DNA of 57,835 nucleotides from Promethearchaeota archaeon (GCA_048938025.1 JBHLMP010000020.1:1-57835); one strand, 5' to 3'; positions 17,651 to 23,496 are shown, counted from the stretch's first letter. Numbers and translations: made by a program. Notes: generated by a model from the letters alone, not told the origin.

Positions 17651-19855
17651 TTAAAGAATTTTCTTCAATTCTAAAATCAAAGAAGAAGGATTATACTTAT
17701 CAAATTTATATACTTCTGCATTACCATATTTTTTAAAGTTCTTTTTAATATTATCTGCGGAATAAGTGTGTACTCCCAAAGCCTGAGTAGCATAGGATTT
17801 TTTAGGTTCTAATACAACTAGATGAACTTTCTGTTTTGATAATTTTTTTGTAAGATCCTTCAATTCTTCTGTTATTAGGGCATAATCATTTTCTATTTGT
17901 GCTATTAAATTAGGATATTTTACTGAAATATTTGCACCACAGTCGGAAAATATAAAAATTACGGGGATAATATTTCGATTCTTTAATTTCTCTGCTTTTA
18001 TTAAATCTGAACATTTTTTTAGTGCTGCTGCCATTGGAGTATAAGACTTTCCCTCTATCTTTTTCAATTTAATTACAGCACTTTTGAAATTTACTGTAGG
18101 TTTTTGAAGAACAATTGCTTCTTTACCTCTAAAAACAATTAAAGCAATTTTATCCTTTTTACGATATCCTTCTTTATGGAGAGATAATATAACATCAGTC
18201 ATTTGCTTAATTACGTAATACATTGATGCAGAACTATCAAGAACAAAAAAGAGGATTAATGGAGCACGGTATTCATAAATTTTATCCTTTAAATCATATT
18301 TATTAAAATGTAATGGAAATTCAATGTCACTTTGATTATATATTTTATTTTTCAAATAACTTCTTATAGTTGCATCTAAAGCAATACTTTTGGGAAGCAG
18401 ATTGATTGGCTTCCTATATGAAACATATCTTCCTTTTTGTGAAGAAGATATTTTAATCCGTCTTCCTATACCTCTTCCTCCGTAATCAGAGATTTTTCGA
18501 TCCTTTCTAATATTATCCAATATTGAGGTCATCTTTTTTTCCATTTTATAAATAAATGGCATATTTCTTGATTTGTCCTCAAAAAATTTAAAGTCATTAC
18601 TTTCTCTGGGAATATTTTTTACTTTCCATCCTCCTGCAGGTTTAGGACTCCTTTTTTTGTTATCAGGGTATTTAGGAGGGGGCAATTTCTGTTCTTTTGT
18701 CTCAGGGATATCAACTTTATTTGGATCTACCGACTGTCGTTTAAATTCTTTTTGAGGAGTATCATCATATTTTAAAGGACCTTCTGTATCTTTACTAGGT
18801 TGGTATGCTTTTGGATCCTCATAGGCTTTTTGGATTTTACCATAGACTTCCGCGATTTTTGCTTTCACTTCGACAGGGGTCATCTCATAATGAAGAGAAA
18901 GAATTCTATGTTCAAATACTAAGTCCATCGCAACATCTAAATCTTCTTCGTTAATAATTTTCCTATCATTAAATGCAGCATGAGCTCGAACACACCGGAT
19001 AAATGTTATATCTGCTCTTTGAGAAAAGATCTCTAACTCATTGACAATTTTTGAAACAAATTCATAAACAGAAGCAGGAATCTGAACTTCTTGAAGAATT
19101 TCTCGAGCCCTAACAATTCTATGTTTTAAAATCTCTTGTTCAGTTTCATATTGTTTAATAAACTCTTTAGGATTATCATCAAACTCAATGACTTTTTTTG
19201 TTATTTCTGCTCGAAGTCTATTGTCTCGGGGGGCCGAGATACGAACTTCTAATCCTAACCTGTCCGCTATTTGGGGTCTTAATTCCCCCTCTTCAGGATT
19301 CATTGATCCGACAAGAACAAATCTTGAAGGATGTGTTACAGATATCCCTTCTCGCTCAATGATATTTATACCTGAGGCTGAAGCATCTAAAAGTGTATCG
19401 ACGATATGATCTTGAAGTAAATTAATTTCGTCAATATATAAAATTCCTCTATTTGCTTTAGCTAATAACCCAGGATGAAGTTCTGATGTTCCCTCTGTTA
19501 ATACTCTATCAATTGATAGTGAACCACAAACCATATCTTCTGTAACACCAAGAGGGAGATTAACGATTCGCATCTCTCGAAATTCAGTTTCAATTTCTTT
19601 TTTCTTTTTTAATCTGCAATCTTCACAGAGATCATCAATATTTGACTTAGGATCACAGGAAAACGGACAATCTTTAATAACTTCAATATCTGGCATAACT
19701 TCAACCAAAGATCTTACAGCTGTAGATTTTCCCGTACCTTGATGTCCTGTTAAAAGTACTCCTCCAATTTGAGGATCGATGACATTTAGTATTAATGCCA
19801 TCTTCATCTTATCTTGTCCTAATATAGCCGTAAAAGGATAATTTATTTTTCTCAT
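17651..19855 (-). CDS. Mg/Co-chelatase ChlI/ChlD-like AAA+ ATPase with C-terminal vWA domain
   Basis: YPFTAILGQD, Walker A GHQGTGKS, YIDEINLL, GSMNPEEGELRPQ, Pro-rich linker, MIDAS DSSASM. Confidence 0.9.
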   Translation of the reverse strand: MRKINYPFTAILGQDKMKMALILNVIDPQIGGVLLTGHQGTGKSTAVRSLVEVMPDIEVIKDCPFSCDPKSNIDDLCEDCRLKKKKEIETEFREMRIVNLPLGVTEDMVCGSLSIDRVLTEGTSELHPGLLAKANRGILYIDEINLLQDHIVDTLLDASASGINIIEREGISVTHPSRFVLVGSMNPEEGELRPQIADRLGLEVRISAPRDNRLRAEITKKVIEFDDNPKEFIKQYETEQEILKHRIVRAREILQEVQIPASVYEFVSKIVNELEIFSQRADITFIRCVRAHAAFNDRKIINEEDLDVAMDLVFEHRILSLHYEMTPVEVKAKIAEVYGKIQKAYEDPKAYQPSKDTEGPLKYDDTPQKEFKRQSVDPNKVDIPETKEQKLPPPKYPDNKKRSPKPAGGWKVKNIPRESNDFKFFEDKSRNMPFIYKMEKKMTSILDNIRKDRKISDYGGRGIGRRIKISSSQKGRYVSYRKPINLLPKSIALDATIRSYLKNKIYNQSDIEFPLHFNKYDLKDKIYEYRAPLILFFVLDSSASMYYVIKQMTDVILSLHKEGYRKKDKIALIVFRGKEAIVLQKPTVNFKSAVIKLKKIEGKSYTPMAAALKKCSDLIKAEKLKNRNIIPVIFIFSDCGANISVKYPNLIAQIENDYALITEELKDLTKKLSKQKVHLVVLEPKKSYATQALGVHTYSADNIKKNFKKYGNAEVYKFDKYNPSSLILELKKIL

Positions 19856-20012: not shown

Positions 20013-20997
20013 CTAAAATTTTGATAAGTTATCTATTCTCTGGTCTAATTTAGAAATAACTTCATCCCATTTAGATAAGATTTCTTCTACTTTAGGAATA
20101 ACTATATCTCTTTCCTTATATTCTAAATAATCTAAGAATTCTTTAATATTTTCAATTTTCATAAAAGTTTCTGCAACATACTTCCGAATCTCGGATTTTT
20201 GATTATTTAAAACTTCAGGAATTCTATTGTGTTCTCCACGTCGTATTAATGTCGCTAAATATTCTTCTGTCCCTTGCAATAGGGAATTTAATTGATTTAT
20301 CCGTTCCATAATAAAGTTTTCATAAGTCTCAAAAATTCTATCTTTTGGAAAAAAATTAGTGATATCTATGATAAATTTCTGGGTTAGCTTAACTAATTGC
20401 TCCATGCTTTCATATCCTTCAATTACATAATCAACAGTATGATAAGATGCTTCAATACCTTTATTAACATCATTCAATCTAAAAATTTTAAAACCAGGGT
20501 CATTTTTTAATCGCTTTTCGGGATCCCCTTTTTTGTCTGCTACCTCGATTTGACGTATTAACCTTGTTGGATTAAATACGAGAGAAATTGCTAATGGATT
20601 ATTAGTTTGATAAGACAATGTAGTTTTAATATCTATGTGGCTCATCATCACTTTTTAGCTAAAACGGTGGAAATCAAACGTTTTTGAAGCCAGGATGAGA
20701 ATGCCACCAGCCAACCGTGAATTCAGGTGGTTGATTTGAAAACGCTTTGTCATCAATGATATATAAAGCTTCATAATCTTCATCTGACCATTTATATTGG
20801 TCTATAACTGCATCCTTATCGAGCTTTTGATGCATTATAGGATATACTTCAGTGATATGTACATCATCACCTTCATTTTTTCCGATAAAAATCCCACTAA
20901 CTTCAAGCCAATCGTCTTTTGGGACTTTCTGGTTTGCAAATCTCACAGAGGCAGCAACAATTGTCAAATAGACCTTTTTCGGAATAATAATAGTCAT
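20013..20997 (-). CDS. JAB/MPN+ (JAMM) metalloprotease, predicted two-exon gene join(20997..20686, 20654..20013), 317 aa
   Basis: Track ORFs 20674..20997 and 20013..20651 are the two halves of one MPN domain (EVSG...VGWWHSHPGF and KVMMSHID...NPLAISLVFNP); removing 31 nt restores HSHPGFKVMMSHID. Confidence 0.85.
20655..20685 (-). other. Candidate 31-nt bulge-helix-bulge (BHB) mRNA intron
   Basis: Minus-strand RNA: GGCU, bulge UC^A, AAAACG, 12-nt loop, CGUUUU, AGCU, bulge AA^A; 4-bp central helix GGCU/AGCU with two 3-nt bulges; canonical cuts excise exactly 31 nt and restore the frame. Confidence 0.8.
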
Positions 20998-21163: not shown

Positions 21164-21820
21164 ATGTCATTAAATTTCGAAGTTCTTACAAGTCAATTAG
21201 GTGTTCCTGGGACTTCCTATAGACTTCAATTGGGATTAATTAATGGGAAATGGGCTTCTAGATTATTGAAGGGAAAAGAAGTAATTGATTCATATGTATT
21301 CAAAGATGAAGATGTGCAAGGTGATATTCCTAATCAAAATCGAATTGTCTCATGGGTCTTAATGACTGTGGCTATTCCAAATATAAACCCTCATCAAATT
21401 ATGAAAACAACGCAGGCTTTGGTCAAACAAGCACTCCAAAAGAAGGAAGAAAGAAAAGTAGTAGCGCCCATTTCCGAAACAAAAAAAGTAGAGTTAGAAA
21501 GAGTTCCTGAAAGTGAATTGAAACGATCTAAAGTGACAGGATGGGTTAAAGAAGAAGGAATGAAAACAATTCAGGAATTAGAAGAAGAAAAACGACAAGC
21601 GTTTAAAGAAAGGATGATCCATAAAAGAGAAGAAGAAAAAGCTCGAGAAGCTTCTACTTTAAAAACTTCAAGAGCATTACCATCTATTCCTACAGGAACA
21701 AGTGGAACAAATATATCTACTGTTGCTGCTGAGGTATCAAAATTTTGTCCATTTTGTGGAAAAGATTTAGATTGGAAATTTTGTCCTTATTGTGGGAAAC
21801 CTCTACCACATGATGATTAA
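21164..21820 (+). CDS. Hypothetical protein with C-terminal double zinc ribbon
   Basis: C-terminal FCPFCGKDLDWKFCPYCGKPL; charged helical middle region. Confidence 0.75.
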   Translation: MSLNFEVLTSQLGVPGTSYRLQLGLINGKWASRLLKGKEVIDSYVFKDEDVQGDIPNQNRIVSWVLMTVAIPNINPHQIMKTTQALVKQALQKKEERKVVAPISETKKVELERVPESELKRSKVTGWVKEEGMKTIQELEEEKRQAFKERMIHKREEEKAREASTLKTSRALPSIPTGTSGTNISTVAAEVSKFCPFCGKDLDWKFCPYCGKPLPHDD

Positions 21821-22020: not shown

Positions 22021-23496
22021 TTGACATCTGATAAAACTGTAATCATTAAACCCCTGGCATATTATAAGATGCTTATTCATATTCTTCGATTTGGTAACAA
22101 AGTGATTGATCGTAAACAATACCGGGAATGTATGGGTGTTCTTATTGGCCGTCTTCTCGAAGGAGAACCTGATAAAAAAGGGATCAATGATGTAATTGTG
22201 GAAGATGCAGTACCCATTTCCCATGGCGGCTCAATAGAAGTTGCTTTTGCCCCAGAAGATTATGTAACATTCTCTATGGTAGATGCTGAATTTGCAGAAA
22301 AAGGATGGTTTAGTGTAGGATGGTACCATTCTCACCCTGGTTTGAAGATTTTCTTTTCGGGTACAGATATAAAAAACATGCTTGGTTGGCAGACTCCTAA
22401 TCCAAGCGCTATTGGAATTGTTTTTGACCATACCTTCTTAGAGAAACCTGGAGATATGGGATTTCGCACATTTAGATTAGATGACCCCTCTAAAGGTCAA
22501 ACAACAGGGTATCATGAAGTAAAAACAGTAGTTGAACCTCCAGATAATCTTGAATATTACCAAAAACTTATAGAATTAATTAACGGTGTTCACTCTAAAG
22601 AACCACCAATCTTAGAAATTAATGAAATGCCTGATTTATTTGGTGATATTGCTATTCCTAGTCAAGATCTATTAATAGCAAAGAAACCAGAATTAGAATT
22701 AACTACAATTTTTTCTGCTATCCAGAATGGAATCTCAAGTTTTTTAAAGTTGACAATTGAGCCATTTGTAACATTTCTTAATGTATGGAGTCAAGAAATA
22801 ATTAGAAAAACAATTGAATCCAATTTAGAAATGAGAAATAATATTTTAGTTATAAAGGAAAAGATTGGAAATGGTATCTCTAATATACAAAAAGATTTTA
22901 AATTTTCCTTAAAAGATAAATTGAATCAATTAGACACATATATCGATGATAAATTTGATGAATTTGATTATAACAATGAAAGTCTTAAAAAAATTATAAG
23001 TCAAATTAAAATTGAACTTAATGATAAATTGAAGGTTATATTTGAAGAAAAGCTAAAGGTTTCTCTAGATCAAGGTATAAACTCGTTTAAAGAAACTCTA
23101 GAAAATTTATCAAAAATAAATCAAGAAAGTTCTAAAGTTTTTGAAAAATTAGAGAGTGAACAAAATTCTCTAAATAGTTTATCAGAGAAAATTGATTCCA
23201 TTGAAGATTCAATCAATAATAAATTAAAGAATCTACAAGACGAAGTTATAAATAAACTGTCCAAAAACATCAATAAAATTGTAGGAAATTTTATTAATTT
23301 AAATAAAGACACAAAGAGTTTCTTATCAGATTTAAAAGCCGCAATTATATTACTGGAAAGTTCAAAGAATCCCATACAAAGTAAAATAAAAACCCTAGAA
23401 ACCGAAAATAAGAATCTCCAAAAAGATTTATTAGAGTTAAAAACTATAAATCAAGATTTATTGAATAAATTAAAAAAATTAGAAGGAGGAGAATAA
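22021..23496 (+). CDS. JAB/MPN+ metalloprotease with long C-terminal coiled coil
   Basis: ECMGVLIG and VGWYHSHPGLKIFFSGTD (intact E...HxH-x7-S-x2-D); ~250 aa heptad-rich tail. Confidence 0.9.
   Translation: MTSDKTVIIKPLAYYKMLIHILRFGNKVIDRKQYRECMGVLIGRLLEGEPDKKGINDVIVEDAVPISHGGSIEVAFAPEDYVTFSMVDAEFAEKGWFSVGWYHSHPGLKIFFSGTDIKNMLGWQTPNPSAIGIVFDHTFLEKPGDMGFRTFRLDDPSKGQTTGYHEVKTVVEPPDNLEYYQKLIELINGVHSKEPPILEINEMPDLFGDIAIPSQDLLIAKKPELELTTIFSAIQNGISSFLKLTIEPFVTFLNVWSQEIIRKTIESNLEMRNNILVIKEKIGNGISNIQKDFKFSLKDKLNQLDTYIDDKFDEFDYNNESLKKIISQIKIELNDKLKVIFEEKLKVSLDQGINSFKETLENLSKINQESSKVFEKLESEQNSLNSLSEKIDSIEDSINNKLKNLQDEVINKLSKNINKIVGNFINLNKDTKSFLSDLKAAIILLESSKNPIQSKIKTLETENKNLQKDLLELKTINQDLLNKLKKLEGGE

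Follow-up and report, generated by a model that had tools for sequence, protein, structure and literature searches.

Positions 20685-20655 on the minus strand of a 57,835-nt stretch of DNA from an uncultured Asgard (Promethearchaeota) archaeon (GCA_048938025.1, JBHLMP010000020.1:1-57835; the whole stretch is referred to here as the window) hold a 31-nt insert that interrupts a JAB/MPN (JAMM) gene, and that is very probably a bulge-helix-bulge (BHB) intron in a JAMM/MPN+ pre-mRNA. The insert falls between the Phe and Lys codons of HSHPGF-KVMMSHID; in the direction of the gene, the minus strand reads TGG TGG CAT TCT CAT CCT GGC TTC, then the 31 nt, then AAA GTG ATG ATG AGC CAC ATA GAT. This reading is drawn from the finding that 12 of 51 orthologs have an insert at this position, covariation within the central helix of the RNA motif, predicted cuts that restore the reading frame, purifying selection on both exons, and the presence of the splicing endonuclease EndA and the ligase RtcB in the genome. 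Together, these sequence data support an original prediction, made from the window, that had placed an mRNA intron here; the letters and coordinates it gave for the insert are borne out.

The interrupted gene and its product

The gene and the predicted RNA motif comprise the following features:

20686-20997, minus strand: exon 1, from ATG at 20997 to TTC (Phe) at 20688-20686, 104 codons, Pfam JAB
20655-20685, minus strand: predicted BHB intron, 31 nt, phase 0 (between codons), from the reading frames, the ortholog alignment and R1, a covariance model of the motif
20016-20654, minus strand: exon 2, 213 codons, starting with AAA (Lys) at 20654 and followed by the stop at 20015-20013
20688-20691, minus strand: central 4-bp helix, 5' strand GGCU, in exon 1 (Gly codon and first base of the Phe codon), from folds and pair counts
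20657-20660, minus strand: central helix, 3' strand AGCU, in the intron, from folds and pair counts
20685-20687, minus strand: 5' bulge UCA, with the predicted cut after its second base, between 20686 and 20685, from folds
20654-20656, minus strand: 3' bulge AAA, with the predicted cut after its second base, between 20655 and 20654, from folds and the point at which contigs depart
20661-20684, minus strand: inner hairpin of the intron, whose stem pairs AAAACG (20684-20679) with CGUUUU (20666-20661) around a 12-nt loop (20678-20667)
20692-20694, minus strand: weak exon-exon helix, 5' strand CCU (Pro codon), pairing with 20653-20651, two of three pairs formed in the window
20651-20653, minus strand: weak exon-exon helix, 3' strand AAG, from pair counts and folds

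Left in place, the insert closes the gene in both relevant frames, as the original prediction had stated. The N-terminal open reading frame (20997-20674) encodes 107 aa with a Pfam JAB match (E 9.1e-12) and is ended by TGA at 20676-20674, inside the insert, and the last stop of the exon-2 frame, TAA at 20657-20655, stands directly before exon 2. Since the stop of the exon-1 frame lies upstream of the last stop of the exon-2 frame, no stretch is open in both, and a single ribosomal frameshift cannot join them; a single programmed frameshift is excluded on this ground. Excision of exactly 31 nt yields HSHPGF-KVMMSHID with the spacing of CSN5 in solved structures and of both uninterrupted paralogs of the window, whose motifs lie at 22327 and 23842, so the spacing argument of the original prediction holds for each of them.

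The JAMM/MPN+ motif is defined as E ... H-x-H-x7-S-x2-D, and the joined exons encode 317 aa in which the E...HxH-x7-S-xx-D site is intact. Exon 1 holds the catalytic Glu (WLEVSG) and the HSH of the motif, as placed by aligning an intact ortholog to CSN5, and exon 2, which begins KVMMSHID, holds the Ser and Asp; the 213 codons of exon 2 have no Pfam match, and the C-terminal part that follows the motif is helical. The intact ortholog (315 aa, 95% identical) matches solved structures of CSN5 (E 3.2e-11) and Rpn11 (E 1.5e-8), with a Caldiarchaeum Rpn11-like protein, BRCC36 and AMSH as further near matches, and its alignment with CSN5 (GWYHSHPGYGCWLSGID) covers the Glu, HSH, Ser and Asp and is gap-free across the insert site. 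The gene product is a predicted JAMM/MPN+ metalloprotease that resembles Rpn11 and CSN5. Named relatives are recorded as metagenome-assembled genomes (MAGs) of Promethearchaeota or Promethearchaeia, some of them labelled Loki, Promethearchaeota/Promethearchaeia being the current name of the Asgard/Loki lineage; the assignment to an Asgard-type gene of the Rpn11/CSN5 family, proposed at the outset, is upheld.

The insert DNA is real. A 501-nt contig of run X1, which may be the source sample, spans 20297-20797 with zero differences, and thereby answers the call in the original prediction for a check against DNA data: the insert is not an artefact of assembly. In contigs of X4 and X5, which come from two other studies and are about 93% alike, exon 2 is joined directly to exon-1 codons, and the point at which they diverge from the window is exactly 20654/20655. 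Moreover, a search pattern for the 3' end of the insert plus exon 2 brought up five metagenome contigs, all of this gene and all with the insert, including two new variants. The source genome is a metagenome-assembled draft (88 contigs, 96.7% complete, 5.14% contamination), and a draft of that kind could harbor an error; differing inserts at the same site in 12 genome assemblies and five metagenome contigs, together with the X1 contig that spans the insert exactly, refute an artefact as far as sequence data can. The probability left to an assembly or sequencing artefact, or to the single programmed frameshift, is next to nil.

Same-site inserts, covariation and selection

We searched 54 genomes of the genus in six frames with the exon-2 protein as query, and found the ortholog in 51, of which 12 carry an insert, 38 are uninterrupted and one (in G069) is truncated. 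The open frame spans 317-357 codons in the 38 uninterrupted orthologs and only 213-214 in the 12 carriers, the window genome among them. In every carrier, an insert of 29-32 nt sits at one and the same codon boundary, directly after Phe; the inserts comprise 11 distinct sequences, which are homologous and fall into two types. The first type (seven sequences) starts A/C-A/G-A/G-A and has a long inner stem; the second (four distinct sequences) starts A/G-TTTGAACTGG. The four bases that lead into the 5' bulge (GGCU, GGUU or GACU) pair in all 11 with the four that lead into the 3' bulge (AGCU, AGUU or AACU), and both bulges are 3 nt long, reading UCA, UUA, UUC or UUG on the 5' side and AAA or AGA on the 3' side. 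By the rule that cuts fall after the second bulge base, which derives from the geometry of introns at tRNA position 37/38, excision restores ...GF-KV... at the spacing of uninterrupted orthologs and CSN5 in 12 of 12 carriers. In G054 and G048, alignment to uninterrupted genes fixes the borders of the insert unambiguously, since it leaves no letters in common that could be shifted, and these borders fall on the predicted cuts.

Pair counts on an alignment of the 11 distinct sequences (A1) show the central helix paired in 100% of cells. The original prediction had proposed to look for inserts in orthologs with compensatory base changes, and these are present in the central helix at two of its four pairs: 17-50 is GC in nine sequences, AU in one and GU in one, and 18-49 is CG in nine and UA in two. 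Double changes occur in eight of the 19 pairs overall, namely those two central pairs and six of nine inner pairs. Sliding the partners by 1-3 columns lowers the pairing of the whole structure from 87% to 21-46%, and 0 of 500 shuffles attain the covariation values that were observed, a test that relatedness among the sequences can inflate. The inner helix has 3-7 contiguous bp in the seven sequences of the first type and 0-1 in the four of the second, and 2-3 of the first three pairs of the outer helix are formed across the sequences.

These features bear on the notion of a split gene, in which the insert is kept and an N-fragment of 107 aa would assemble with a C-fragment, translated from the conserved Met-Met, into a two-chain MPN domain. 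The exon-2 frame does open with GTG ATG ATG right after an in-frame stop in 11 of 11 distinct sequences, an AGGU-like stretch precedes the ATG in eight of 11, and purifying selection on both halves (below) suits separate translation as well as it suits splicing. However, the AGGU and ATGATG letters are those of the Lys-Val-Met-Met codons and are equally present in uninterrupted orthologs, and the GGU lies 1 nt from the ATG, which is too close given the usual spacing of a ribosome-binding site. The break would fall inside the metal-binding motif, and a split gene predicts neither a helix between exon 1 and the insert, nor bulges fixed at 3 nt, nor compensatory changes, all of which are observed. 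We consider a split gene improbable.

Translational bypassing, in which the ribosome would take off from a codon ahead of the gap and resume at a matching one beyond it, would give the same protein, and the window does have AAA after the Phe codon and, 31 nt on, AAA at the start of exon 2, the interval holding a hairpin and a stop. Yet identical take-off and landing codons occur in only three of 11 sequences, or in five of 11 if AAA and AAG are both allowed; the other six read AGA, ATT, GTT or CAG against AAG. The Phe codon cannot serve instead, as the codon before exon 2 is always a stop and offers no site for re-pairing, and bypassing does not predict covariation of the central helix. Its probability is very small. 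In phage T4 gene 60, the model for this process, a gap of tens of bases inside the coding sequence is left untranslated, with a hairpin and a stop. The likeness to the JAMM gene lies in such a gap of tens of bases with hairpin and stop; the difference is that bypassing needs matched take-off and landing codons, which most JAMM orthologs lack.

Comparison of the sequences indicates that both exons are under purifying selection in the insert-bearing lineages. The ratio of nonsynonymous to synonymous substitution rates (dN/dS) is 0.00-0.19 for both exons when insert-bearing genes are compared with each other (16 exon comparisons from eight pairs with estimable dS), 0.03-0.19 between genes with and without the insert, and 0.01-0.10 among genes without it. 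The relaxed selection on both halves that the original prediction had named as telling against an intron is not seen. In 43 of 55 pairs, the introns themselves are closer to each other than synonymous third positions are, with an identity within types of 0.84-0.90 where synonymous identity is 0.56-0.65, synonymous sites being near saturation. These values can be set against a decaying or tolerated pseudogene, which a chance insertion of 31 nt with a hairpin would have inactivated, the paralogs of the window covering the function. There are two JAB/MPN paralogs within 3.5 kb, the closest relatives of the gene (92-96% identical) are without the insert, one copy in the genus is truncated, and in one named MAG the gene is frameshifted by 1 nt at another place. 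Nevertheless, the exons are free of stops and frameshifts in 12 of 12 carriers, dN/dS stays at 0.00-0.19 between carrier lineages near synonymous saturation, and the insert is itself conserved and covarying, which makes decay of this kind hardly credible.

A few copies of the family differ in form. The truncated ortholog, L042 (G069:C2:11972-13344), has the C-terminal part only (query residues 22-212) with one TAA, and the JAB N-terminal half was not seen in the 700 nt upstream of it. L069, an uninterrupted ortholog on a contig of a named MAG, has a small 1-nt frameshifting deletion in the N-terminal JAB part, away from the intron site; either the assembly is wrong there or the gene may be broken. 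The exon-2 protein also has weaker matches at G059:C86:3068-3448 and G132:C9:8086-8472, within open frames of 1181 and 1008 codons respectively, which may be fused forms of the exon-2 protein family.

Splicing model, machinery and distribution

From these data we propose the following route for the transcript. GGCU of exon 1 would pair with AGCU of the intron, leaving a 3-nt bulge on each strand between the intron hairpin and a short exon-exon helix. An (alpha-beta)2-type EndA would cut after the second base of each bulge, and RtcB would join the exons and probably circularize the intron. The mature mRNA (...HSHPGF-KVMMSHID...) would then be translated into the 317-aa protein with a full JAMM site, and unspliced RNA would give only the 107-aa fragment, which is without the Ser/Asp half of the site. 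We infer cleavage, ligation and translation of the joined mRNA from motif, frames and gene content.

The genome encodes two paralogs of the EndA family. The catalytic one keeps the Tyr/His/Lys residues and has its best solved match in Aeropyrum pernix (3p1z_B, residues 26-201, E 2.4e-35), with a Lys-Pro-Arg that aligns with K44/R46 of the Aeropyrum loop; the second has Ser at the position of the catalytic His. Passages of work on the Aeropyrum enzyme place K44 in the loop (CSL) behind its broad substrate specificity and describe it as an RNA recognition site (PMC3241643), and Asgard archaea are reported, in part of another study, to have an (alpha-beta)2 EndA carrying that loop (PMC5829648). 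The pair in this genome agrees with the (alpha-beta)2 type described for Asgard archaea (PMC5829648; 10.64898/2026.10.13.758758), with the assembly of the subunits predicted from sequence. One RtcB is present (E 4.5e-170). ARAGORN called only 32 tRNA genes in the genome, with introns in 18; this low count fits a preprint which, in the portion drawn on here, reports that Asgard tRNA genes are heavily interrupted and under-called (10.64898/2026.10.13.758758).

The intron appears confined to this gene and genus in the genomes covered. A scan of 135 genomes of the family found the gene in 122 and the short frame that marks an insert in 12 genomes, all of the window genus, with 0 of 71 matched genomes of other genera in the family showing it. 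The covariance model R1 scores the window locus (20651-20694) at 58.3 bits (E 2.2e-11), its one match in the own genome, where the next best hit has E 2.3. R1 matched nothing beyond this gene, with hits in 12 of 54 genomes of the genus, 12 of 151 genomes sampled from the order and 0 of 98 in 23 other genera; because exon bases form part of the model, introns unrelated to this one would escape it. Rfam gave a chance-level match only (sR5, 14.4 bits against a gathering score of 40 bits, E 0.78).

Within the genus, the distribution is patchy. On a tree of 50 genes, from which eight codons on each side of the site were excluded, presence of the insert needs at least nine changes, seven of them forced by well-supported branches, and inserts cluster on the tree hardly more than shuffled labels do (35 and 47 of 500 shuffles were as low). 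The closest relatives of the window gene (92-96% identical) have no insert, and relative to the sister genome the ~60 nt just upstream of the window intron are 70% alike and exon 2 97%. This local mosaic may, on sequence similarity, be a recombination tract that brought in the intron, ~60 nt being too short to test. The patch itself, the last ~60 nt of exon 1 (20686-20745, minus strand), is only 68-72% like the three closest relatives (L023, L004 and L024), compared with 89-97% for exon 2, and includes six extra bases (Pro-Pro) common to distant members of the genus. At synonymous third positions of 20 codons on each side, carriers show no excess of flank similarity: identity is 0.58/0.56 between insert-bearing genes, 0.57/0.55 between genes with and without the insert, and 0.60/0.57 among genes without it. 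Lateral import of the intron together with its flanks leaves no general signal here.

The catalytic-motif position, the intron identity of 0.84-0.90, the nine or more changes in presence and the local mosaic upstream leave room for an intron that is more than a passenger, either as a switch, with the making of active JAMM protease hinging on cytoplasmic splicing by EndA and RtcB (an Asgard counterpart of HAC1/XBP1), or as a mini-intron that hops between species. We regard such a role as doubtful; against a mobile mini-intron stand the lack of a second copy in the 151 genomes and the flanks of carriers, which are not more similar.

Several results weigh against a BHB intron, and they concern the window, the alignment and the genome in turn. 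When 86 nt were folded without constraint, RNAfold gave GGCU/AGCU, UCA as the 5' bulge and AAAACG/CGUUUU, all three as originally predicted; the predicted 3' bulge AAA is drawn in this fold as four A rather than three. The predicted exon-exon helix is likewise imperfect and starts with U-A, as had been said, but it is weak: next to the 3-nt bulge, U-A is followed by a C.A mismatch and then by C-G. The energy of the window fold is ordinary (z -1.43; 19 of 200 shuffles fold at least as well), and a loose form of the motif (4 bp and no fewer than 3 inner bp) is common by chance, with 10 instances in a stretch of 151 nt around the site; with the insert shuffled at its fixed site, the central helix plus at least 3 inner pairs arose in 196 of 200,000 trials. 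On the alignment, the RNAalifold consensus lacks the central helix and pairs columns 17-20 with 55-58, with no double changes. In folds of single sequences, the central helix is in the minimum-energy structure of six of 11, and in the other five a fold constrained to the motif is 1.3-4.0 kcal/mol worse than the preferred structure. The exon-exon helix is weak across the orthologs, pair 15-55 failing in four of 11 and pair 14-56 in three of 11, and in the second type the modeled 5' site lies in a larger internal loop and would be a relaxed motif.

In the genome, tRNA splicing by itself requires EndA and RtcB, which makes their presence necessary and not discriminating. The patchy distribution, with its nine or more changes, would also fit an insert that is mildly harmful and repeatedly purged. 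A genome-wide scan asked for 4 bp, at least 3 inner bp, two of three outer bp and a removal that links two open frames, each of 60 codons or more. It recovered the window intron and gave 6068 hits, and a control whose partners were shifted by one base gave 6269; under stricter filters the counts were 6 against 4 and 7 against 8 in the control, and the 14 strictest others looked like ordinary neighboring genes. As the scan runs at the level of its control, it has no power, and other mRNA introns are neither found nor excluded by it. The sequencing data covered 20 listed runs, all of DNA and none of RNA, and every contig examined was DNA. The significance of the motif rests on the orthologs; a single sequence would not carry the claim.

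Relation to known systems and neighboring genes

Introns of the tRNA-splicing type are almost unknown in protein-coding sequence. The BHB intron of cbf5 has reportedly been described by, among others, Watanabe in 2002 and Yoshinari in 2006. Passages of a 2009 study describe it, in crenarchaeal cbf5 pre-mRNA, as a short intron in the coding sequence with a sometimes relaxed BHB, in hosts with a two-subunit EndA and with a patchy presence read as gain and loss, and state that no gene besides cbf5 had been confirmed (PMC2738675). The candidate in the JAMM gene is similar in being short, non-spliceosomal, bounded by a BHB and placed in coding sequence, in a host with two EndA subunits and with a patchy presence among relatives. 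It differs in its gene and phylum, a JAMM/MPN protease in an Asgard setting that is AT-rich (28% GC) rather than a pseudouridine synthase in Crenarchaeota; it would moreover split a catalytic metal-binding motif, and its splicing is predicted from sequence. The cbf5 gene of the window genome is uninterrupted (337-aa open frame).

The motif also recalls archaeal tRNA introns, in that exon 1 and the intron together build the central helix, which is also the arrangement at tRNA position 37/38, and the same enzymes are presumed to act. The difference is that the host RNA here is an mRNA, with codon constraints on the exon flanks and no second copy matched by R1. Asgard tRNA BHB introns are abundant according to the preprint cited above, whose portion drawn on here describes introns as gained repeatedly and counts 44 of 60 genomes with two EndA paralogs, and whose main text, supplements aside, has 0 occurrences of the word mRNA (10.64898/2026.10.13.758758). 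Another mRNA processed by EndA is that of Haloferax volcanii HVO_1309, with an intron in the 5' untranslated region; the passages concerned name cbf5 as the only other mRNA case reported by 2020 (Schwarz 2020, PMC7714728). HVO_1309 shares with the JAMM gene an mRNA as substrate of the archaeal splicing endonuclease, and differs in that its intron lies in the untranslated leader rather than in coding sequence and in that its host has a different type of EndA.

Spliceosome-free removal of a short mRNA intron with a change of frame is also known from HAC1/XBP1, where Ire1 acts on two stem-loops under regulation by stress. The resemblance is one of working and implies no membership: a short mRNA intron leaves without the spliceosome, the frame changes, and the ligase is of the RtcB type, with Ire1, two stem-loops and stress regulation there as opposed to EndA on a BHB here. 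A link between RtcB and XBP1 is described in part of a further source (PMC8718801).

We found no Asgard mRNA intron of the BHB type in the literature searched. The JAMM intron would be the second case of a BHB in a coding region after crenarchaeal cbf5, and, among that literature, the first found in an Asgard archaeon. If the reading is true, mRNA splicing by EndA and RtcB reaches a second gene family as well as the nearest archaeal lineage to eukaryotes; eukaryotes also use mRNA ligation of the RtcB type. The 11 natural variants, in two types, and the 38 intron-free orthologs would then form a mutational series for the range of non-tRNA substrates of the Asgard enzyme. It would also carry a warning for annotation, as gene callers will show the protease as two fragments or as a pseudogene.

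The split gene (20013-20997, minus strand) belongs to a cluster of three JAB/MPN genes, the others being a 491-aa gene at 22021-23496 and a third at about 23842, both on the plus strand. The 491-aa paralog reads HSHPG and the third (open frame of 469 aa) reads SSHPG, its first His replaced by Ser. This cluster of HSHPG and SSHPG members recalls the known MPN+/MPN- pairs Rpn11-Rpn8 and CSN5-CSN6. A promoter scan gave a result not better than shuffles. Between the split gene and the 491-aa paralog, at 21164-21820 on the plus strand and hence opposite to the split gene, lies a gene whose 218-aa product has a zinc ribbon at its C-terminus (Pfam Zn_Ribbon_1, E 4.7e-7). Directly downstream of the split gene and on the same strand, 17651-19855 encodes a 734-aa AAA+/vWA protein that resembles putative cobaltochelatase or Mg-chelatase I-D fusions (TIGR02442, E 1e-174, at 582.6 bits below the cut-off of 779 bits).

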